Assembly (NCBI GenBank): GCA_963727455.1
Contig: CAVSGG010000007.1
Span: 115,478 to 179,477, forward strand
DNA length: 64,000 nucleotides
Source: Candidatus Krumholzibacteriota bacterium
GTDB lineage: Bacteria > Krumholzibacteriota > Krumholzibacteriia > JAJRXK01
Direction of reading: 5' to 3'
In this document: positions 26,214-53,613 of the stretch, in pieces
Numbering within the stretch: position 1 is the stretch's first letter
How the letters are laid out: the number at the start of each line of letters is the position of its first letter
Position numbers and translations under genes: made by a program
The notes under the pieces: model-generated
The model's input: only the letters and a program-made list of their open reading frames with translations
Told to the model about the DNA's origin: nothing
Database searches by the model: none

Positions 26214-27041
26214 GTGGACACTCACACCCCACTGCGCGAGGAGAACTTGGAGAGTCTCAGAAGTCGCGCGCACGAGTACTTCATGACGGTCAACCGCCCG
26301 GTCGGCAGCGAGGAATTGGCCAAGGTCCTGTTCAAGCCGCAGATGGACGAGTCTGTCTCACCGCTCTTGGTGCGCACCCTCCTTTCCCGCGACCGCCGTT
26401 TCAGTGAATCTTCACGCGGACTCTGGGAACTCAGCTCCTCACCCTACCGCCATCTTCGTCTGCAGGACGCGGCGTTCGCGGTGGTCGATCTCGAGGCCAC
26501 CGGTAGCCGACTGGGAGTCGACCGCATCATCGAAGTGGCGGTGGTACGAGTCGACCACGGCTGTGTGCGTCGCAGCTTCAACACGCTGGTGAATCCCCTG
26601 CAGCCGGTGCCGCACTGGATCCAGGGCTTGACTGGCATCAAGGACTCGATGTTGCAGGACGCGCCTCGTTTTCATCAGGTCGCGCCAAGGGTTTTGGAGT
26701 TGCTCAAAGGTAGCGTGTTCGTCGCACACAACGTCGACTTCGATTATCCCTTCCTGAGACGACAGGTGAGGGAGTCCGGACACCGACCACATCCCTGGCC
26801 ACAGCTCTGCACGGTTCGGCTCTCGCGCAGGATGCATCCTGAATGGGGCGCCTTTCGCTTGGGCGCGGTGGCGCGACGTCTGGAGGTCCCCCTCAAGCGG
26901 CATCACCGCGCCATCGCCGACGCCACCGCGACGGCCCAGGTCCTTTTGCGGGAGCTGAAGGAGCTCCAGCACCAGGGCATCGGCACGGTGGGGGAGGTCC
27001 TGGCCTTCGCGCGCTCGGCGCCCGCTCCAGCCGAAGACTGA
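26214..27041 (+). CDS. DEDDh 3'-5' exonuclease (DnaQ/PolC-like) with N-terminal extension
   Basis: VVDLEATG, VAHNVDFD, HHRAIADA motifs. Confidence 0.9.
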   Translation: MDTHTPLREENLESLRSRAHEYFMTVNRPVGSEELAKVLFKPQMDESVSPLLVRTLLSRDRRFSESSRGLWELSSSPYRHLRLQDAAFAVVDLEATGSRLGVDRIIEVAVVRVDHGCVRRSFNTLVNPLQPVPHWIQGLTGIKDSMLQDAPRFHQVAPRVLELLKGSVFVAHNVDFDYPFLRRQVRESGHRPHPWPQLCTVRLSRRMHPEWGAFRLGAVARRLEVPLKRHHRAIADATATAQVLLRELKELQHQGIGTVGEVLAFARSAPAPAED

Positions 27042-27089: not shown

Positions 27090-27119
27090 TTGACGGAGAT
27101 AGGCCTCAAGTGGTAGCTT
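27090..27119 (+). promoter_or_regulatory. Putative sigma-70 promoter for CBS-CGL operon
   Basis: TTGACG-N18-TAGCTT; same hexamers as promoter at 50408. Confidence 0.5.
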
Positions 27120-37536: not shown

Positions 37537-37768
37537 TCTTGGCCCCCTTTTTGCCCCTTGTGGCGCACTGTGGTTTGCTTGACGCCCCCCGTATACCATG
37601 GCTAAGTTGAAGATGTCAGCGGCGAGTTCCTCTCCATGCCGTTGCAAGCGTGCAATCGCAACGGCCTGCTATCACATCAGTTGACACGACCTCCTAGCTT
37701 GGTATGGAGATTGCAGCTCATGCTGTACACGATCTTCCAGCCAAGAGCCCCAATTGCGGGAGAGCACG

Positions 37769-42497: not shown

Positions 42498-42516
42498 ATT
42501 GATTGTCATTTTCAAT
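42498..42516. promoter_or_regulatory. Fur-box-like operator upstream of tandem fur
   Basis: ATTGA-TTGTCATTT-TCAAT 19-bp imperfect palindrome; 16/19 identical to site upstream of feoA. Confidence 0.75.
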
Positions 42517-42561
42517 TCGCGAGGGAACCCTCTGATTTTCCCCTTCGGGGGAGGCTTGGTC

Positions 42562-43554
42562 ATGAACGATACAAAGTCCTCTCCCGCGCGGAATTCCTCC
42601 ACACTGATCGACGAGTTCCGCGCCTACCTCTTGCGCGAGAACCTGAAGAGTACGCGTCAACGCGAAGCCATCGTGAATGTCTTTGCGCGCATGGAGGGTC
42701 ACGCCAGCGTCGAGGACTTGCTGAAGGCGGTGAGCCGGACGGAGAAGGGCATCGGCTACGCCACGGTGTACCGCACGCTCAAGCTCCTCGTCGATTCGGG
42801 TCTGGCGAGCGTGCGGCACTTCGGGGATGGCGAGAGCCGCTACGAAGTTCGCAGCCCGGAGCACCACGACCACTTGATCTGTACCGAATGTGGTCTGGTC
42901 ATCGAATTCAAATTACCCGAGGTCGAGAAGCTGCAGGAGGAGGTGGCGAAGAGGGCCGGGTTTCACCTGGAGAGCCACTGCCACGAACTCTACGGGATCT
43001 GCCAAGAAGTCGCGGCTGGCCAACCGTGCCGCTTTAACCCGGAGGCGGGAAAGGACACGATTGGTGGACGCCCCTTCAGCGATCAGGGTTCCGTTCCCGC
43101 TTCTTTCGAACGCCGTTCGGCCGAGAGCCTTCCCAGCGCCTTCCGCAAGTACCTCGCGCGCGAGCAACTGAAATCCACCCGGCAGCGTGACCTCATCGCG
43201 GAGGTCTTCTCCAAGCTGGAGGGCCACGTCAGTGTCGACGACTTGCTCGCGGAAGTGAAACGCCGGGATCCGCAGATTGGCTATGCCACGGTCTACCGTA
43301 CTCTGAAACTCCTGGTCGATTCCGGGCTCGCCGCCAGCCGGAGCTTCGAGGGCGGGCGCACGCGCTATGAGACTCGCGGCCTGGAGCATCACGATCACAT
43401 GATCTGTCAAAAAACCGGCAAGATCATCGAATTCCGCAACGATGAGATCGAACAGCTGCAGGAGAACCTTGCCAAGAGCTTGGGCTTCAAACTTCTCCGG
43501 CATCGCCACGAGCTCTACGGCTATCTCGAAGCTGCGGCCCCCCCGGAAAACTGA
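42562..43554 (+). CDS. fur: Tandem double-domain Fur family regulator
   Basis: Two full Fur units, each with LKSTRQR, GYATVYRTLKLL, HHDH.IC and HELYG. Confidence 0.92.
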   Translation: MNDTKSSPARNSSTLIDEFRAYLLRENLKSTRQREAIVNVFARMEGHASVEDLLKAVSRTEKGIGYATVYRTLKLLVDSGLASVRHFGDGESRYEVRSPEHHDHLICTECGLVIEFKLPEVEKLQEEVAKRAGFHLESHCHELYGICQEVAAGQPCRFNPEAGKDTIGGRPFSDQGSVPASFERRSAESLPSAFRKYLAREQLKSTRQRDLIAEVFSKLEGHVSVDDLLAEVKRRDPQIGYATVYRTLKLLVDSGLAASRSFEGGRTRYETRGLEHHDHMICQKTGKIIEFRNDEIEQLQENLAKSLGFKLLRHRHELYGYLEAAAPPEN

Positions 43555-44914: not shown

Positions 44915-47065
44915 TCACCCCCATCCCAAGAGAAGTCCGCCCTGATAGACCACGAAGGAGGCAATCCAGGCCAGGGCGAACATGTAGGTCCACATGAAGA
45001 TCGGCCAGCGCCAGCTATTCGTCTCCCGCTTCACCACGGCAAGGGTTGACATACACTGGCAGGCGAGCACGAAGAACATCAGCAGGCTGGCCGCGACCAG
45101 GGGAGACCACACGCGCGTGCCGTCGGGATAGGTGTCTTCTTTCAGGCGTTTCTCCAAAGACGAGACGTCGTTCGAAGTGTCTCCCACGCTGTAAATGGTG
45201 CCCAGAGCGCTGACCACCACCTCGCGCGCGGCAAAGGAGGAAAGCAAGGCGACGCCGATCTTCCAGTCGAAGCCGAGCGGCTTCAGCATGGGCTCCCAGA
45301 GATGGCCGGCGCGGCCCATGTAGGAATTTGCGAGCTGGGTGCTGGAATCGAGCTGCCCGGTCTGCCCGTCGTTCCCCGTCTGCGGGAACGCGGCCAGGAA
45401 CCAGAGAATGATGCTCATGGCCAGGATGATGGTTCCCGCGCGAGTGAGGAAGATTTTGGCGCGTTCGGACATCCGCCATGCAACGTCGCGGAACCGGGGC
45501 CGATGATAGGAGGGCAGCTCCATGACGAAAGTGGAGGAGGAGCCCTTGATGACCCGGTTGCGCAGAAACGCGGCGGCGAGCACGGCCATTCCCGTTCCCA
45601 AGAGATACAGGGTCATCAGAGTGAGGGCCTGGTAGCTGAGAAAGCCGAAGTGTCCGGCCGCGGGGACGAAGGCGGAAATGACCAGGGCATAGACCGGCAG
45701 GCGCGCCGAACAGGTCATGAACGGAGCGACCATCATGGTGACCAGGCGATCGCGCTGGCTGTCCATGGTGCGCGTAGCCATGATGCCTGGCACCGCGCAG
45801 GCGTAGGAGGAGATCAAAGGCACCACCGAGCGGCCGCTGAGTCCCACCTTCCGCATGGGACGGTCCATGATGAAGGCGACGCGGGCCATGTATCCGGTGT
45901 CTTCCAAGAGGCCGAGGAAGAAGAAGAGCAGAAGAATCTGCGGCAAGAAAACCAGCACGCCCCCCACTCCCGAGAGCACTCCGTCGACTACCAGGCCGCG
46001 CACGAGACCCGCAGGCAAATGGGTGGTGGCAAGTGTGGACAGCCAGCCCATCCCGCTCTCGATCCAATTCATGAAGGGCGCGGCCCAGCTGAACACCGCC
46101 TGGAAGACCACGAGGAGAACCGTCAAGAAGAACGCGGGTCCGAGGAAGCGGTGTGTCAGGATGGAATCGATCCTCTCGCTCGCACTGCGGTGACCCACTT
46201 GCCGCCGGATCTGCACCACGCGCTCGGCCAGGGGAGTGATCCACTGGTAGCGCGCGATGATCTCTTCCTGTTCGTAGAGCGTACCCTGTGCTCTGAGGCG
46301 CTCCCGCGCGGCATCGACTTCCTGCCAGAACTCGGCGGAATGGTGGGTTTCGAAGCGGGGCGCGGTGGTGTTGGCCAACGCCCTCAGGGCATCCGCGAAG
46401 CGCATCGAGGTGGAGAGCTGTGGTACGTCGGCCGAAAGGCACTGGGCCAGGTGGTCCACTTCCCTTTGCAGCGCGTCGGGCGTCTTCCAGCGCCGCGGCG
46501 GAACCTTGGGAAGTTCGCCGCAGAGCCCTTGCTTGAGGGCCTCGATTCCCTTGCCGCTGCTCGCGGCGAGAGGATAGACGGGCACGCCGAGCTCGCGCGA
46601 AAGTGCCTGGTCGTCGACGAAGACTCCTTCGCGCTCGGAGGCATCGGTCATGTTGAGGGCGATGATGGTGGGGATCCCCAGATCCAAAACCTGGCTGGTC
46701 AAATACAGATTGCGCTCGAGGTTTCCCGCGTCCACCACGCAGACGACCAAGTCGGGGCGATCCTGTCCCTGCATTTCGCCCACCAACACCCGGTAGGCGA
46801 TTTCCTCGTCCAAGGAGCGTGGGTTCAAACTGTAAGTGCCGGGGACGTCGACGATCTGGACCGCGTGCGAGTTCCCGGTCACGACCTGACCGACTTTGCG
46901 CTCCACCGTGACGCCGGGATAATTGCCGACCTTCTGGCGCAGACCCGTCAGCTGGTTGAAGACCGTGGTCTTCCCCACGTTGGGATTGCCGGCCAGGGCG
47001 ACGAGGCGTGCGGCCTTGGCTGGTTCAGAAAGGGTGGGGGCGGTACCGCCAGCCGTCCAACGCAT
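44915..47065 (-). CDS. feoB: Ferrous iron transport protein B
   Basis: GNPNVGKT, GNYPGVTVE, DVPGTYSL; TM domain with CSARLPVY, FVMELP, AREVVV. Confidence 0.97.
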   Translation of the reverse strand: MRWTAGGTAPTLSEPAKAARLVALAGNPNVGKTTVFNQLTGLRQKVGNYPGVTVERKVGQVVTGNSHAVQIVDVPGTYSLNPRSLDEEIAYRVLVGEMQGQDRPDLVVCVVDAGNLERNLYLTSQVLDLGIPTIIALNMTDASEREGVFVDDQALSRELGVPVYPLAASSGKGIEALKQGLCGELPKVPPRRWKTPDALQREVDHLAQCLSADVPQLSTSMRFADALRALANTTAPRFETHHSAEFWQEVDAARERLRAQGTLYEQEEIIARYQWITPLAERVVQIRRQVGHRSASERIDSILTHRFLGPAFFLTVLLVVFQAVFSWAAPFMNWIESGMGWLSTLATTHLPAGLVRGLVVDGVLSGVGGVLVFLPQILLLFFFLGLLEDTGYMARVAFIMDRPMRKVGLSGRSVVPLISSYACAVPGIMATRTMDSQRDRLVTMMVAPFMTCSARLPVYALVISAFVPAAGHFGFLSYQALTLMTLYLLGTGMAVLAAAFLRNRVIKGSSSTFVMELPSYHRPRFRDVAWRMSERAKIFLTRAGTIILAMSIILWFLAAFPQTGNDGQTGQLDSSTQLANSYMGRAGHLWEPMLKPLGFDWKIGVALLSSFAAREVVVSALGTIYSVGDTSNDVSSLEKRLKEDTYPDGTRVWSPLVAASLLMFFVLACQCMSTLAVVKRETNSWRWPIFMWTYMFALAWIASFVVYQGGLLLGWG

Positions 47066-47072
47066 GGAAATC

Positions 47073-47294
47073 TCAAACAGGTTGCACTTCGACGAGTCCG
47101 GCCTCGTGTTTGCGCAGAGATAGGTGGTAACCACGAATACGAATGTCGATGGGGTCGCCGAGGGGGGCGAGGCGGATGATCTCCAGCAGGGTGCCTTGCA
47201 GCAGACCCATCTCCAGGAGCCGACTCGGGGGTTCTTCCCGCGTCCAGCCCGTCACGACGCCGCGTTCTCCTGGTTTGAGTTGGTCGAGGGTCAT
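47073..47294 (-). CDS. feoA: Ferrous iron transport protein A
   Basis: RLLEMGL...APLGDPI...LSLRK.EA. Confidence 0.95.
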   Translation of the reverse strand: MTLDQLKPGERGVVTGWTREEPPSRLLEMGLLQGTLLEIIRLAPLGDPIDIRIRGYHLSLRKHEAGLVEVQPV

Positions 47295-48806: not shown

Positions 48807-49487
48807 TCAGCCCACGAGCTCCAGGAGGCGCCGAAATTCGTTGAAGAGGTGGTCGGCGTCCTTCAGCTCATCTCCTTGAGCAAAGCCGTAGCTCAAGCCG
48901 ACCGTCTTACACCCCAGCTCTCGGCCGGCCGTGATGTCCTCGCGGCGATCGCCAACCATCACGCACTTCGCCGCTTGGACTTGGAGTGCTTGCAGCGCGC
49001 GTCGCAAGAGCACCGGTTTGCCGCCCTCGATTCCGGCCGGGAGCTCTTCGTGACACTCGGTGTGTTCGACGAGAGCGGAGAGACCCAGGTAACGCAGGCA
49101 GGCGCGAAAGTAGGGCTCTTGCGCGTTGCTCACGATCGCGAGCCGGACGCCGCGCGCGCGCAGCTCCTTCAGGGTATCCGAGATACCGGGATACAGCTTG
49201 CCCTCACCTTTGGCCAGGACTTCGACCTCGGCCGCGGTGGCGCTTTCCTTGACCTCTTTCGCTAAATGCGCAAGCTCTGGGGGGAGGATGCGGCGGTAGT
49301 ATTCGGCGGGAGGAAGCCCCATGGCATCCATGATGGCATGCTCGTCGGGCACCTGGTTCGCGATCTTTCGCCGCTGAAGTACCGCATGCACTCCCTGGGC
49401 CACCGCGCGAACGATGGCGCGGCGGGAATCCACCAGGGTTCCATCCAGATCGAAGACCATGGCCTCAGGCGCTGCATTCGAGAGCAT
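48807..49487 (-). CDS. HAD family hydrolase (phosphoglycolate phosphatase-like)
   Basis: FDLDGTL, IVSN, K-P, MVGDR..DI motifs. Confidence 0.9.
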   Translation of the reverse strand: MLSNAAPEAMVFDLDGTLVDSRRAIVRAVAQGVHAVLQRRKIANQVPDEHAIMDAMGLPPAEYYRRILPPELAHLAKEVKESATAAEVEVLAKGEGKLYPGISDTLKELRARGVRLAIVSNAQEPYFRACLRYLGLSALVEHTECHEELPAGIEGGKPVLLRRALQALQVQAAKCVMVGDRREDITAGRELGCKTVGLSYGFAQGDELKDADHLFNEFRRLLELVG

Positions 49488-49544
49488 CGAGCAACTTTCG
49501 TAGGGAAACCGAGGGGATCGCGAATCGGCGAAAGGATGGTAGGA

Positions 49545-50393
49545 ATGAAGCTGAAGGAGAGCCAGCACGAACTGCGGACCAGGGAAGGGCTGCCGTTGCG
49601 CGTGGATTTGAGGGTACCGGCCGAAGCGGAGCCTCAAGGCATCGTCGTCATCGTGCACGGCTTCAAGGGCTTCAAGGATTGGGGCTTTTTCCCGCACACC
49701 GGGCGAGCGCTCGCGGCCGATGGATTCGCCAGCGCCTGCTTCGACTTCTCCCTCAACGGCATTGGCGAACGTCCGGGAGAGTTCGATCGCCTGGACCTCT
49801 TCGAACGCAACACTTACGCGCACGAGATCGAGGATCTGCAGGCGGTGGTGGCCTGGCTGCGCGCGGATGCACCGCTCTCTGCGGCCACGCGGCAATCCAA
49901 ACTGGGTCTGCTCGCGCACAGTCGGGGGGCGCTGAGCGCCATCGTGGTTGCCAGCGAGGATCCCTCCATCCTGGCTCTCGTCAGCTGGAACGGTATCTCG
50001 AGCGCGCTGCACTATGGCGAACGACAGCTGAAGGAATGGGAAGAGAAAGGGAGGATGGAGTTCGTGAATTCCAGAACCCATCAGCGTATGGCGGTCGGAT
50101 TCGCCCTGGTAGAGGACGCCCGCGCCAACGCCCAGCGCTACGATTTGCCAAGAGCGGTGAAGTCGATGCGGGCCGCCCATCTCATCGTGCAGGCGGAGAA
50201 CGACCTCGCCGTCGATCCAAGCAACGCGGAAGTGCTGCGCGCGGGGCGGCCCGAGAGCGAGGACTGCCACTTGGTGAAAATCGAAGGCGCCGGTCACACC
50301 TTCAATGCCGTCCACCCCTTCGCAGGAACCACGCCGCCCCTCGAGACGGCCTTGCAGTTGAGTTCCAATTGGTTCGCCAAGCACCTCCGCTAG
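49545..50393 (+). CDS. Alpha/beta hydrolase
   Basis: HGFKGFKDWGFF, AHSRG nucleophile elbow, GAGHTF. Confidence 0.9.
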   Translation: MKLKESQHELRTREGLPLRVDLRVPAEAEPQGIVVIVHGFKGFKDWGFFPHTGRALAADGFASACFDFSLNGIGERPGEFDRLDLFERNTYAHEIEDLQAVVAWLRADAPLSAATRQSKLGLLAHSRGALSAIVVASEDPSILALVSWNGISSALHYGERQLKEWEEKGRMEFVNSRTHQRMAVGFALVEDARANAQRYDLPRAVKSMRAAHLIVQAENDLAVDPSNAEVLRAGRPESEDCHLVKIEGAGHTFNAVHPFAGTTPPLETALQLSSNWFAKHLR

Positions 50394-50407
50394 AATGGGG
50401 TGGGGGG

Positions 50408-50436
50408 TTGACGCACCCGAGGGCCCTACGTAGCTT
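50408..50436 (+). promoter_or_regulatory. Sigma-70-type promoter into non-coding region
   Basis: TTGACG-N17-TAGCTT. Confidence 0.65.
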
Positions 50437-50442
50437 GCCAGT

Positions 50443-51175
50443 AGGAGTGCGTGGGTAAGTAGACTCGTCTGTCTATCCAACGACTCGTCTGCGAAACCAT
50501 TCTCTCCACGGAGACGAGGGGACTCCAAGCCCCGCGTTTGCAACACTCGCCACACTTCCAAGCGGACCTGGAGCTTTCCCCACCCGAGTCACCGGCGACG
50601 TCTTTGTCCATCGAAGCGAGTCTGGTCTCTTGCGAGGCCGGGAGTTTCAAGTGGCGCGATGTCGCGAGATTGCTCGGTTGACCAGGTGCCTTGCGTCTCG
50701 CCCCAGGCCCGAAATTTCCCTAGAGACTCGCGAACTCTGAAGAGTGGGTCCGTGTGTGTGCCTGTTGTGAGGCTGACACGCTACTTGTCGCGCAGCTCTT
50801 CAGTGTTGGAATGCTTGGGCTCCGCGCGGGCTCTGCTCCCTTGCGCCGGTTCTCGTTGAAGTCGTTTGCATGATCCGGCCCTCGGCGTGATCCCTTCGCA
50901 CGGTCCCAGGTGGGGTTCTGGGAGGCGAACGGGAGGGGCGACCCTCTCAGGGACCGCTCGTCTCCACAGTTCCCTCTGCTGTGTTCGGGTTGGATTGGGT
51001 GCGGGTCCGGCTGACGTGCACGGACAGGCTTCAGGGTCGATCCCTGTCATAGCGCCAGGCGGAAGGGGGCCCTCGTTCGACGGACACCTCGAGTGTTCAG
51101 CCGGCACCCCCCAAGTCGGGTCATTGGTCGAGTCCACTGGGGCATGAACTCGACACAGTCGGCCGGCCCGCTCCT
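50443..51175 (+). ncRNA. Candidate large structured non-coding RNA (~730 nt), family not recognised
   Basis: No credible ORF; 5'/3' ends pair; at least ten mostly nested helices identifiable by eye; own promoter. Confidence 0.6.
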
Positions 51176-51202
51176 CATCCCGATGCAGAGAGTCGGTTCT
51201 GC

Positions 51203-53242
51203 CTACTTGACCAGAGTGATTCTCTGGGCCGCGGATTGCTCCGATCCCTGCAACACTACGGTATAGACTCCCGAAGCCACCGGGTTCCCTCGGTCATCGC
51301 GCCCGTGCCAGAGAAGTTCGTGCTCGCCCTGTGCCATCGTCTCCGTATCGAAGCTCCGCACGACCCGGCCGCGCGCGTCCACGATCCGCAGTTGAACCGG
51401 CAGCTGTCCCGGGACGGTGAAGCGCAGGCGCGTGGTGGGATTGAAGGGGTTGGGGACGTTGGGCAGGAGCGACAGGCGGGTCGCCGCGAGCTGCGGGACC
51501 GCGGTGGCGGCGTCGGGACTTTGGTTCCAGCGCAGGACCCAATCCTTGGGATCGAGTTCGACATTCGTTGGCTGGGCGGAGACGATGAAGGACGCAACTT
51601 GGTACGCGCCGTCGTTCCACACCGTAAACGTTTGCGAGCCCGCTGCTGTGTCCACCACGAAATCCAGCGGCATGCGGTAGGTGTCACCCTCCTGCACCTG
51701 CTCGATGGTGACTACCACCTTATAGCTCTCTCCCAGATTCTCGGCCCTCCAGGAGATGTCGTAATCGGGACGGCCCACGCGGTAGAGCCACTCATCGAAG
51801 AACCAGGACAACTCGGTGCCGGAAACCGACTCAGCGATGGAGATGAAGTCGGAGATGTGCGCCGCACCATAGTGCAGGTTGGGCGAAGCGGCGTAGGTTT
51901 TGAGCACCTGGAAGAAGTCGTTGTCGCCGATCATGTGGCGCAGCATGTGCAGAATCCAAGCTCCTTTCTGGTACACGGTGCCCCCGAAGAGCGGAGTGGG
52001 GGGGCTCACCGGTCCGTAGAAGCCGATCTCGTAGGCGGAGTGCGAGCGCATGAAGCTACGGTACTGATCGAAACCGTACTTGTACTCGACCCAAAGCGCT
52101 TCGGCGTAGGTTGCGAAGCCTTCGTGCAGCCATACTTCGTTCCAGTCCTTGACGGTGACGAGATTTCCGAACCACTGATGCGAGAGTTCGTGGCCCACCA
52201 GAGTTTCGAAGTAGTTGTCACCGGTAATGAGAGTTTGGCCGTAGCTCGTCATGGTCTGATGTTCCATGGCTCCATCGAAGATGAACTCGGCCATGCCATA
52301 CTTGTCGTCGACGAAGGGGTACTCGCCGAAGAGGTTCGAGTAGAGGTCGAGCATTTCCTTGGTGGACGCGAAATCGACGAGGGCCTTGTTGAGGTCCTCG
52401 GGGAAGACCTTGTACTCCAGCGTCATCTCCTTTCCGCTCGGGCTTGTCCAGTTCTCGGTCCAGCCCACGTAGTTGGTCACCGCGATCGACACGTTGTAAG
52501 AGCTGATGGGGTAGTTCTCTTCCCAGGTGAAGAGCGTGCCCCCGTTGTTGGGGAGCACTTCCTCCGAGTTCAGGACCCCGTTGCCCGCGCAGTAGTATCC
52601 CGGCGGCGCCAGCAGGGTGAGACTGACGGTGGCCTTGTCGTCAGGGAGGTCCTTGCACGGCCACCAAGAGCGCGAATAGTAGGGCTCGCTGAGGGTGGCG
52701 AGGATCGGCGTGCCGTCGTGCAGGAGGTATTGCATCCCCAAGAAACCGACCGGCTCCGGGGAGCCCTCGTAGTCGATGGTGATGCTCGTGGAGTCCCCCA
52801 GGGCCAGGGGCGTTTGGAGCTGGACGGTCAAAAGATCGTTCTCATGCGTGAAACTCAGCGGATTGCCCTGGCTGTCGTGAGCGCCGGTGCCTTGCAGATT
52901 CTGGAAGAGATCGAATTCCAGGTCGGTGAGTCCATCGACCAGGCTCTTCAGGTCGATGCGTACCGTGCCCTGAATGGTCTGATCGTCGAACGACGGCTGG
53001 AGATAGAGATCGTAGTGCAGAACGTCGTAATGCGTCTGGTTGACGGTGGCGAGCTTGCCCGTCCCCGTCATCCCGGTGGTTCCCATCTTGGTCGAAAATT
53101 GAGAGGGGAACTCACCGCGCACTCCGCCCGGAATGGTGCACAGTTCCACCGCGAGAGCTGGGGAAGCCGCAACAACAAGACAAAGGAAAACCGGCGCAAG
53201 GGCGGTGAGGCATCGCCTGCGCGAGGTGGATGCGTGGTGCAT
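51203..53242 (-). CDS. M1 family aminopeptidase with C-terminal FlgD-Ig/T9SS-like domain
   Basis: Signal peptide; GAMEH, HELSH...WLHEG; tail PNPFNPTT...WHGRDDRG..VASGVY. Confidence 0.92.
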   Translation of the reverse strand: MHHASTSRRRCLTALAPVFLCLVVAASPALAVELCTIPGGVRGEFPSQFSTKMGTTGMTGTGKLATVNQTHYDVLHYDLYLQPSFDDQTIQGTVRIDLKSLVDGLTDLEFDLFQNLQGTGAHDSQGNPLSFTHENDLLTVQLQTPLALGDSTSITIDYEGSPEPVGFLGMQYLLHDGTPILATLSEPYYSRSWWPCKDLPDDKATVSLTLLAPPGYYCAGNGVLNSEEVLPNNGGTLFTWEENYPISSYNVSIAVTNYVGWTENWTSPSGKEMTLEYKVFPEDLNKALVDFASTKEMLDLYSNLFGEYPFVDDKYGMAEFIFDGAMEHQTMTSYGQTLITGDNYFETLVGHELSHQWFGNLVTVKDWNEVWLHEGFATYAEALWVEYKYGFDQYRSFMRSHSAYEIGFYGPVSPPTPLFGGTVYQKGAWILHMLRHMIGDNDFFQVLKTYAASPNLHYGAAHISDFISIAESVSGTELSWFFDEWLYRVGRPDYDISWRAENLGESYKVVVTIEQVQEGDTYRMPLDFVVDTAAGSQTFTVWNDGAYQVASFIVSAQPTNVELDPKDWVLRWNQSPDAATAVPQLAATRLSLLPNVPNPFNPTTRLRFTVPGQLPVQLRIVDARGRVVRSFDTETMAQGEHELLWHGRDDRGNPVASGVYTVVLQGSEQSAAQRITLVK

Positions 53243-53613
53243 GATGTCGGATCTAGTTCGTTCTCAATGCCCCATGAAGCTCCTCATGCGGAAAGAGTGC
53301 TCTGTGGGGAACCCGGTCTCTAAGGCTTCCATAATGACAGTGCCCGCCGACGCGGTCAAGCCAGCGCGCCCTACGGCGGCTGCCAAAGGAAGTCACTTTC
53401 GGTACGATAGGGGAGGCCCAAGGTGTACGCGCAGCGCCACGGTGTACGCCCACGTACGTACTTTGGTCCGATCGGACACGGAGTTTCCGTTGTAACTAAC
53501 TGAAAGCTAGCTAGTTGCGAGCTTGGCTCCCGCCGGGCCCCAGCTTTGCTGCCCAGGGGGGAGAACCCCAAAATGGTCGAGACTCCTCGGCCCGATTCAC
53601 CAGGAGGATGACG

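Follow-up and report, generated by a model that had tools for sequence, protein, structure and literature searches.

A probable new gene for a large structured non-coding RNA in Candidatus Krumholzibacteriota

The stretch of DNA analysed here (the window) comprises 64,000 nt of a Candidatus Krumholzibacteriota genome (contig CAVSGG010000007.1 of assembly GCA_963727455.1; the genome is referred to as G000), and an 809-nt gap between two convergent genes in it, at 50394-51202, very probably holds a new structured non-coding RNA (ncRNA) gene. The generic features of a stand-alone gene of this kind were found in the gap, namely a promoter, which is conserved in all seven homologues, contigs of about 700 nt in RNA libraries, the pattern of a non-coding sequence under selection, and covarying helices, which occur in three domains. 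Together with the lack of any match in Rfam, they support the original prediction made from the letters of the window, which had seen in the gap a large, independently transcribed structured ncRNA in the size class of OLE, ROOL and GOLLD and possibly of a new class. Taken as a whole, the observations are best explained by a stand-alone ncRNA gene of about 733 nt whose product acts as a protein-binding scaffold, a reading to which we give a probability of roughly 0.5.

A non-coding stretch under purifying selection

The gap had been described as about 800 bp long, lying between convergent genes and devoid of any credible open reading frame (ORF), and so it proved: its four longest ORFs encode 66-118 amino acid residues, which is the size expected by chance, and none of them matched a Pfam family. 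Identity, periodicity and indels were counted in a three-way alignment of G000 with G003 and G001, two further genomes of the same genus. The RNA region is 91.8% identical in G003 and 80.8% identical in G001, compared with 83.2-87.3% and 69.0-80.4%, respectively, for the flanking genes. Its mismatches are distributed over the positions modulo 3 as 21/16/23 in G003 (p 0.52) and 47/43/49 in G001 (p 0.82), that is, without codon periodicity, and the flanking genes show such periodicity with p values from 1e-9 to 1e-30. Moreover, the indels in the RNA are four of 1 nt in G003, and eleven of 1 nt and one of 8 nt in G001, and the peptides translated from the six frames match the relatives in several frames simultaneously with no consistent ORF. 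Since the stretch is conserved above its flanking genes, lacks periodicity and contains many 1-nt indels, it is non-coding and under purifying selection. The chance ORFs and the ordinary folding energy of the whole molecule (see below) could be taken to mean that the gap holds no functional RNA, but a decayed gene, the remnant of a mobile element or a missed protein gene. This is highly improbable, given the conservation pattern just described and the peptide matches in several frames without any Pfam family. In addition, the RNA stretch is chromosomal and single-copy in G000, its signature was not found in viral contigs by a pattern scan (0 matches), and its wider neighbours are ordinary chromosomal genes, which encode Fur, alanine racemase, FeoB, an AlaX-like protein, a xanthine-dehydrogenase-type enzyme and AcrB.

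Promoter, transcript and gene ends

The promoter TTGACG-N17-TAGCTT, with which a start at about 50443 had been predicted, is present with both hexamers and the 17-nt spacer (Table 1), and a promoter of the form TTGAC(G/T)-N17/18-TA(A/C/G)(C/G)(C/G/T)T is found upstream in 7/7 homologues, always equally far from the 5' box. Each of the five species in the genus has TTGACG-N17-TA(A/G)(C/G)(G/T)T in place, while the carriers from two other genera, G006 and G005, have TTGACT-N18-TAAGTT and TTGACG-N17-TACCTT, respectively. A generic sigma-70 scanner does not call this promoter, which agrees with the consensus at 8/12 positions, and the case for it therefore rests on its conservation.

The pattern derived from these promoters (TTGACK-N17/18-TAVSBT) has three sites in the window, where 0.13 +/- 0.37 would be expected. 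The two further sites, both on the + strand, lie at 37579-37608, which is intergenic and about 160 nt upstream of a gene that reads like a PrkA-type kinase (by eye, no search run), and at 27090-27119, just past the ORF 26214-27041. The derived pattern may thus be the organism's ordinary promoter type, and perhaps a common housekeeping form of promoter in this lineage. The gene for transfer-messenger RNA (tmRNA) of G000 has TTGCGC-N16-TAGAAT.

Part of the stretch is contained in 24 public runs, five of which are RNA libraries from wetland or rhizosphere samples. Four of these RNA runs, from three studies, were compared with 49000-53300 at a likeness of at least 88%, and in 4/4 of them contigs from an approximately 93%-identical strain (the variant strain) lie on the RNA, between 50452 and 51142 (Table 1). 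The RNA is present in RNA libraries as a unit of about 700 nt. The flanks, 49000-50440 and 51160-53300, are uncovered except for a 38-nt piece at 49656-93, and they are not counted as evidence. Furthermore, three contig ends pass into adapter letters and not into the genome, before 50459 in run X8, before 50452 in run X21 and behind 51142 in run X12. We take these letters to be Illumina adapter, the orientation of which puts the read-2 primer at the 5' end of the + strand, and this would presumably mean + strand RNA if the library is dUTP-stranded. For the discrete transcript from 50443 to 51175 that had been expected, the contigs of the four runs show a unit of about 700 nt, over 50452-51142 and not over its full length.

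Both ends of the gene can be placed approximately. The 5' end should lie at or before 50444, because the pairs 50444-47/50504-07 covary, and the position of the promoter agrees with it. The 3' end should lie near 51175, since the last pairs of the 3' domain end there and the identity drops to 66.7% (G003) and 40.7% (G001) in the 27 nt past it (51176-51202). The + strand is indicated by the invariant G-U pairs, which would be A-C mismatches on the other strand, by the direction of the promoter and by the adapter orientation assumed above.

The closeness of the RNA to the convergent gene for an M1 peptidase brings up the question of whether it is only a cis element of this gene, such as an antisense RNA, a 3' untranslated region or a termination structure. 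The distance from the RNA 3' end to the peptidase stop codon is 0-27 nt in the five species of the genus, where the two are adjacent, and the peptidase gene is still nearby and convergent in G005 (2.5 kb off) and G006 (7 kb off). Nevertheless, a cis element is very unlikely. Judging from the G-U pairs and the promoter, the RNA and the peptidase mRNA are read from opposite strands, the RNA is intact in the two genera in spite of the separation by 2.5 and 7 kb, the RNA contigs pass into adapter letters and not into peptidase sequence, and no other gene follows the RNA on its own strand. A role as leader of a downstream gene was also considered for G005 and G006 and rejected; the ORFs there (598 and 420 aa, respectively) are mutually unrelated, rich in Arg, Ala and Pro, belong to no family and are probably spurious. 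The gene upstream of the RNA varies by species as well, encoding an alpha/beta hydrolase, a HAD hydrolase or an SDR. As both the upstream gene and the distance to the M1 peptidase gene vary, the RNA forms a transcription unit of its own.

Fold and covariation

Nine long-range pairings, almost all nested in each other, had been proposed for the RNA, and all of them are perfectly complementary in the window (7/7, 7/7, 9/9, 6/6, 7/7, 6/6, 7/7, 8/8 and 7/7 pairs, in 5' to 3' order). However, comparison with dinucleotide shuffles, which had been suggested as a check, went against the whole molecule (z -0.34), while the 5' stem-loop alone gave z = -3.29 with 0/200 shuffles as stable. As the folding at 62% G+C is no better than that of the shuffles, complementary pairs of 6-9 nt are no evidence by themselves, and the nested fold is mostly not kept in the homologues, its complementarity being no more than chance. 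Instead, the RNA is a colinear row of mostly local hairpin domains. At least three of these, the 5' stem-loop, the middle GNRA domain and the 3' domain, appear to be held by compensatory base changes, so that the search for covariation in homologues, also suggested beforehand, turned out positive. Shuffled alignments and slid pairing partners served as controls for covariation. The variant strain, which was used in no model, breaks none of the helices proposed here.

In the 5' stem-loop (alignment A3), 92.1% of the cells are paired and 8/18 pairs are changed on both sides, compared with 3.4 +/- 1.3 in shuffles and 0-5 with slid partners. All six substitutions of the variant strain in 50482-50508 hit the nine unpaired positions (P = 2.8e-4), and the stem-loop of G005 scores 34.4 bits with model R3, with the same fold and different stem letters. 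Its 12-nt loop, UGUCUAUCCAAC, is identical in 5/7 genomes, and the AUCCA core of the loop is present in 7/7. In the middle domain (alignment A5), 91.3% of the cells are paired and 5/16 pairs are changed on both sides, while shuffles give 2.0 +/- 1.0 (4/500 reach 5) and slid partners 0-2; the inner GNRA helix of G005 was scored as broken in this count owing to a shift of the alignment by one column. Among the three long forms within the genus, the loop of the domain reads GCGA, GUGA or GAAA, and three changes in the variant strain, which has the loop GUGA, keep or create pairs.

The 3' domain is the best conserved part of the RNA. RNAalifold on the unfitted five-sequence alignment A1 gave 11/61 pairs changed on both sides. 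In the model-fitted eight-sequence alignment A2, 90.9% of the cells are paired and 24/61 pairs are changed on both sides, compared with 9.4 +/- 2.3 in shuffles (0/500 reach 24) and 3-5 with slid partners. The domain also has many invariant G-U pairs. Its minimum free energy (MFE) structure as a single sequence prefers a three-hairpin version, which includes a hairpin at 51127-54 that had been predicted before, but compensatory changes in G004 and G002 (pairs 29/152, 32/149, 39/141 and 40/140 of the 3'-domain consensus) favour the long-range pairing over this hairpin.

In the second hairpin and in 50600-50920, the alignment across genera is too poor for pair counts, because MAFFT shifts the strands by one column. 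The second hairpin forms 9/9 pairs in the window and in the variant strain, and the short forms of the RNA described below have an equivalent helix with one compensatory change from CCCC/GGGG to CCUC/GAGG (seen by eye, with no formal covariation count). Its loop box GCAACACUCGCC is nearly invariant in five sequences of the genus and has a looser match in G005 and G006. The predicted hairpin at 50621-42 is upheld as well, with 4/6 central pairs compensatory among G000, G003 and G001 and none broken, and its loop is UUCG in G003. The strands of the GCGAGAU hairpin are kept in all long forms, and G005 and G006 have GCGAGAU...AUCUCGC around differing interiors; there is no covariation in this hairpin because its stems do not vary. 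The long hairpin at 50737-50803 corresponds to the predicted helix 50737-44/50796-803, the only one of the nine to stand: it keeps 8/8 pairs in G003 and G001 and 7/8 in G005 with different letters, GCGGAGC/GCUCCGC, at the aligned place, while its interior differs between species. Among the 15 closing pairs of the domain 50813-50911, five are invariant, six changed on one side, three compensatory and one broken.

The other eight predicted helices were checked mainly in G003 and G001, the relatives with reliable alignment. The helix that should close the whole RNA (50443-49/51169-75) retains 5/7 pairs in both, uncompensated, and its 5' strand belongs to the 5' stem-loop. The pairing of 50475-81 with 50989-95 is kept in G001 through G-U pairs, but falls from seven to four pairs in the variant strain; as a conserved contact between loop and linker it was rejected, for only in G000, G004 and G002 (and, close to this position, in G006) does it rank first or second among the duplexes, and in G003, G001 and G005 it does not. 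The helix 50510-18/50957-65 can still form (9/9 and 7/9 pairs), but within the covarying middle domain its 3' strand has a local partner (9/9 in G001, by eye). Both strands of 50525-30/50813-18 are used by better-supported local helices, the 3' one in the domain 50813-50911. The helix 50541-47/50802-08 is reduced to 4/7 pairs in each of the two relatives and 50548-53/50651-56 to 5/6 in three lineages, in both cases without compensation in G003 and G001, and 50662-68/50727-33 loses two of seven pairs in the variant strain, where the competing GCGAGAU hairpin is untouched. Finally, 50901-07/50950-56 keeps 6/7 and 5/7 pairs, again uncompensated, and its 5' strand is used by the domain 50813-50911. 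It would cross the middle-domain helix and could form only as a pseudoknot, and since its 3' strand is the invariant bulge, covariation cannot decide on it.

As a rule the stems vary, and the strongly conserved boxes are unpaired: the 12-nt apical loop, the loop GCAACNCUCGCC, in which the genus shows almost no variation, and the 8-nt bulge CAGGGACC, which is invariant in the five long forms. In the variant strain, a 72-nt segment, 50769-50842, is replaced by 70 unrelated letters. The segment, which extends from the tip of a variable hairpin into the beginning of the domain that follows, gives the impression of a hypervariable module, the rest of the RNA being conserved. Besides, the AT skew is strong, at about -0.30 (T over A on the + strand) across 50650-51100, the 3' two-thirds of the RNA, and the flanking genes differ from it.

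Table 1. Positions in the window of the RNA gene, its promoter and domains, the contigs from RNA libraries and the two genes flanking the gap
Feature	Position	Strand	Description
RNA gene	about 50443..51175	+	about 733 nt, both ends approximate
Promoter	50408..50436	+	-35 TTGACG 50408-13; 17-nt spacer; -10 TAGCTT 50431-36
5' stem-loop	50444..50507	+	about 65-nt hairpin, 18 pairs: 50444-47/50504-07, 50449/50502, 50451-54/50497-500, 50459-64/50487-92, 50467-69/50482-84; apical box UGUCUAUCCAAC 50470-81
Second hairpin	50518..50581	+	GGGG 50518-21/CCCC 50578-81; CUCCA 50523-27/UGGAG 50569-73; loop box GCAACACUCGCC 50540-51
Variable hairpin	50622..50641	+	50622-29/50634-41, loop UUGC
GCGAGAU hairpin	50664..50701	+	GCGAGAU 50664-70/GUCUCGC 50695-701
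Variable long hairpin	50737..50803	+	closed by CUGAAGAG/CUCUUCAG
Hairpin domain	50813..50911	+	closed by 50813-30/50893-911; evidence within the genus only
Middle GNRA domain	50921..50965	+	outer 10-bp helix 50921-30/50956-65; inner 6-bp helix 50932-37/50942-47; tetraloop GCGA 50938-41; invariant 8-nt bulge CAGGGACC 50948-55
3' domain	50997..51175	+	about 184 nt; 61 nested pairs without branch points
Contig, run X8	50459-51134		698 nt, depth 31.5
Contig, run X12	50462-51142		700 nt, depth 26.7
Contig, run X21	50452-50899		471 nt, depth 3.65
Contig, run X23	50454-50764		316 nt, depth 3.84
alpha/beta-hydrolase gene	49266-50393	+	left flank of the gap
M1 aminopeptidase gene	51203-53242	-	right flank of the gap, convergent; C-terminal FlgD_ig domain

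Distribution and long and short forms

BLASTN detected the RNA in 4/4 genomes of the same genus and in 0/36 other relatives. The matches span the full length in G003 (91%) and G001 (79%), and in G004 and G002 no more than the final ~170-190 nt. The locus is syntenic among these relatives. The covariance model R1, built on the 3' domain from this one genus only, found single matches in G006 (40.1 bits) and G005 (38.5 bits), in which the RNA is about 780 and 920 nt long, respectively, and the blocks of the RNA are colinear, with an identical order in every copy of the seven genomes. With model R2, carriers numbered 7/151 among the genomes sampled from the class and 7/151 among those sampled from the phylum; both scans used strict filters, so that absence there means 'not found'. 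All carriers belong to one family of Krumholzibacteriia, the genera of which have the RNA in 4/4, 1/1, 1/1 and 0/3 genomes. In the genus with 0/3, matches of 13-17 bits to model R3 were rejected, as none of them contains the loop box and two are located within a coding region, and up to 1.5 kb from the M1 peptidase orthologues no match exceeded 17 bits. Exact-pattern scans returned 12 genome records, of which six score with the model (five assigned to Candidatus Krumholzibacteriota or Krumholzibacteriia and one to 'uncultured bacterium') and the other six are chance matches. The same kind of scan of metagenomes returned seven contigs, one of which scores, being a near-duplicate of G003, and six of which are due to chance.

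The partial matches in G004 and G002 represent a short form of about 420 nt (G004 L004 1246-1700; G002 L005 1215-1677). The promoter is retained in it, together with the 5' stem-loop, the second hairpin and the 3' domain, whereas ~340 nt of the middle (about 50600-50950) are missing, and with them both the GNRA domain and the GCGAGAU hairpin. The peptidase stop lies only 455 nt (G004) and 463 nt (G002) from the promoter, vs 792-796 nt in the other members of the genus. The natural long (0.73-0.92 kb) and short (0.42 kb) forms thus already delimit the core of the RNA.

Possible function

Considering that the stems are free to vary while the conserved letters are unpaired, that GNRA and UUCG loops cap the helices, that the contigs are well covered and that the middle is dispensable, the RNA is best seen as a stable one that is recognised by proteins or by itself. 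In the reading that we prefer, it would be transcribed from the + strand by its own sigma-70-like promoter, starting near 50443 and ending near 51175. The product would be a stable, abundant structural RNA acting in trans, not a base-pairing regulator or a cis element, and its conserved unpaired boxes would bind one or more proteins, so that it serves as the scaffold of a ribonucleoprotein (RNP). This is supported by the location of the conserved boxes, unpaired and on variable stems, by the GNRA and UUCG loops and by the finding of no complementary targets for the loop box. By analogy, a protein-binding scaffold of the OLE type in particular is our tentative choice, held at clearly less than even odds. 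Put more generally, and a little short of an even chance, the RNA may define a new class of large bacterial RNAs with tertiary structure, from a candidate phylum that is uncultured: an RNA machine, whether an RNP core, a ribozyme or a self-assembling particle, with the 5' hairpin and the 3' domain as its core and about 340 nt of optional middle, and not a base-pairing regulator.

Recognition by the RNA itself would make it an RNA-only machine, either a ribozyme or a self-assembling ornate RNA like GOLLD, ROOL or OLE, with the loops making tertiary or intermolecular contacts. Such a machine would suit the size of 0.4-0.9 kb, the GNRA tetraloops on a covarying helix beside an invariant bulge, the strongly conserved unpaired boxes and the contig depth of 26.7-31.5 in two RNA runs; moreover, 50989-95 of the window is complementary to the 5' loop (7/7), and homo-oligomers have been reported for three large ornate RNAs in the excerpts consulted of PMC12286853. 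It is still unlikely, for this loop-linker pairing drops from seven to four pairs in the variant strain and is not among the best duplexes in G003, G001 and G005, no tetraloop receptor or known ribozyme core was recognised, no Rfam ribozyme matched, and the middle third with its GNRA domain is dispensable in two species.

The 12-nt apical loop could instead be the seed of a long regulator that pairs with mRNAs in the manner of a small RNA (sRNA), since a loop identical in 5/7 genomes and held on a stable stem is the usual way to present a seed, and the RNA has its own promoter. A complement of the loop box with at most one mismatch occurs at only one other place in the 3.46-Mb genome, which is 88.85% complete, so that targets could be missing. 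The 9-mers of the box occur 5-9 times, which by a rough estimate is about chance. In addition, the RNA is 5-10 times as long as a typical sRNA, and its best conserved part is the paired 3' domain. We therefore consider a base-pairing regulator quite unlikely.

Returning to the protein-binding scaffold, we also looked at a repeated pentamer. [G/U]AUCC recurs two to seven times per RNA (at 50474, 50872, 50889 and 51039 in the window) and is enriched over shuffles in G006 (5 vs 1.3), G005 (7 vs 1.6) and G000 (4 vs 1.0). The copy in the 3' domain of G005 reads CGAUCCAAC, close to the 5' loop box CUAUCCAAC. As a protein site the pentamer was set aside, because it is not enriched in G001, G002, G003 and G004 and the signal is weak and confounded by homology; the repetition could reflect a recognition site or simply shared ancestry.

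Several points weigh against a scaffold-forming ncRNA gene. The MFE of 50443-51175 is -315.6 kcal/mol, compared with -313.0 +/- 7.6 in 20 dinucleotide shuffles, 8/20 of which are as stable, and the 3' domain alone gives a folding z of -1.77; the opposite strand gives -0.83. The larger count of covarying pairs in the 3' domain comes from alignment A2, which was fitted to the model and leans towards it. The RNA contigs stop about 35 nt short of the proposed 3' end and show neither level nor strand, and a scanner found no intrinsic terminator at the RNA gene. No conserved neighbour gene that would point to a partner protein was found at the carrier loci, and the scaffold mechanism is drawn by analogy. 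Furthermore, the homologues come from only seven genomes, corresponding to about six independent sequences, and the fourth genus of the family (three genomes) has no copy detectable with R2 at E <= 1, which means that the RNA is not essential to the family.

To our knowledge, only very few bacterial ncRNAs exceed about 400 nt and have a conserved intricate fold, namely the rRNAs, RNase P RNA, tmRNA, the group I and II introns, OLE, GOLLD, ROOL, HEARO and raiA. As far as we know, every new addition to this list has brought unexpected biology to light, for instance RNA-guided nucleases, membrane RNPs and RNA-only cages. Krumholzibacteriota is a phylum without cultured members, and a search of titles and abstracts returned neither a description of an ncRNA from it nor any paper linking the two; among the matches listed, the literature on Krumholzibacteria is ecological by title and abstract and contains nothing there on RNA. 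The RNA can be seen in wetland metatranscriptomes, so that samples already at hand would allow one to measure where it ends, how abundant it is and under which conditions it is expressed, and the 3' domain of about 184 nt and the 5' hairpin of about 65 nt are small enough for direct structural work. Even if its role is modest and it is no more than a stable RNA specific to this lineage, it closes a gap in the annotation of these genomes.

Neighbouring genes

Some observations were made on the genes around the RNA. For the last ~100 residues of the M1 peptidase (51203-51520, an FlgD_ig-type domain), matches were seen at the C-termini of many large proteins of the genomes G006-G009 that are unrelated in other respects, and residues ~560-679 of the peptidase alone have more than 10 matches in related genomes. 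The C-terminus looks like a shared sorting or secretion domain. Elsewhere in the window, the 351-aa ORF at 42499-43554 (+) gives two Fur-family matches and represents a tandem fusion of Fur or, alternatively, two neighbouring fur-type genes that were read as a single ORF. It lies beside feoB (44915-47134, -).

Comparison with known RNAs

The whole 64-kb window has no match to Rfam 15 at the gathering score, and in 50300-51300 only four matches appeared at E <= 10, with 12-13.5 bits vs gathering scores of 43-145. Four homologous loci gave no match at E <= 0.1, and ARAGORN found no tRNA or tmRNA in the window. The RNA belongs to no Rfam family, including OLE, ROOL, GOLLD, HEARO, raiA and the group I and II introns. 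The original prediction had likewise recognised no signature of RNase P RNA, tmRNA, signal recognition particle (SRP) RNA or a group II intron, and both the Rfam search and the copies of such RNAs in the same genomes agree with it.

RNase P RNA of type A (RF00010) resembles the short form in its size of about 420 nt, and some GC-rich strands are reminiscent of the P4 helix, but the region has no RF00010 match at E <= 10. A divergent RNase P RNA was considered, since G000 has no RF00010 match, and rejected, since 4/4 genomes of the same genus have a normal one elsewhere (286-302 bits). RF00010 scores over the cut-off in 40/41 genomes searched, with G000 as the exception, and the gap in G000 is most likely due to its incomplete assembly (completeness 88.85%, contamination 6.68%). 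Likewise, tmRNA, SRP RNA and 6S RNA were rejected because G000 has copies elsewhere, of tmRNA on contig C18 (166.6 bits) and of SRP RNA and 6S RNA on C5 (78.4 and 60.2 bits, respectively). The 3' domain is a long imperfect hairpin of about the size of 6S RNA (RF00013), but its consensus lacks a large central bubble and it is part of a 0.7-kb RNA.

Group II introns have GUGYG at their 5' end, and their domain V is a hairpin with an AGC triad and a 2-nt bulge. The GNRA hairpin described here has an 8-nt bulge, and its 5' strand (GGAGGCGAAC, GGAGCGAAC or GGGGCGGGC) is without the conserved AGC. Moreover, GUGCG at 50447 is not kept in G003 or G001, and there is no RF00029 match, so that a group II intron was rejected. 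Sponges of the CsrB/RsmZ type are, like this RNA, multi-hairpin RNAs acting in trans, and they sequester a protein. A CsrA sponge was also rejected, as the GGA and A-N-GGA motifs are not enriched in 8/8 sequences (for GGA in G000, 14 vs 15.1 +/- 3.0), and CsrA was not found in 3/3 carriers of the genus searched, yet is present in the non-carrier G007.

We thus rate the RNA as a new class, which is a small family of the seven genomes counted above. GOLLD (RF01998) and ROOL (RF03087) share with it the size class, the ornate multi-hairpin build and a biochemical function that is not known. They are often borne by phages or prophages and differ from the RNA described here, which has no match to either family and lies in a syntenic chromosomal locus among housekeeping genes, and the signature of which was not found in viral contigs. 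OLE (RF01071) lies beside the genes of its partner proteins and occurs in another phylum, Firmicutes. The RNA has no match to it at E <= 10 and no conserved neighbour gene (partner proteins were not searched for). In the excerpts consulted of PMC3413148 and PMC9723947, OLE is described as a large (~600 nt), highly expressed RNA that is part of an RNP. What the two have in common is the form of a large chromosomal ncRNA with many hairpins, in which highly conserved nucleotides are interspersed, and OLE is therefore the working analogy that we favour.

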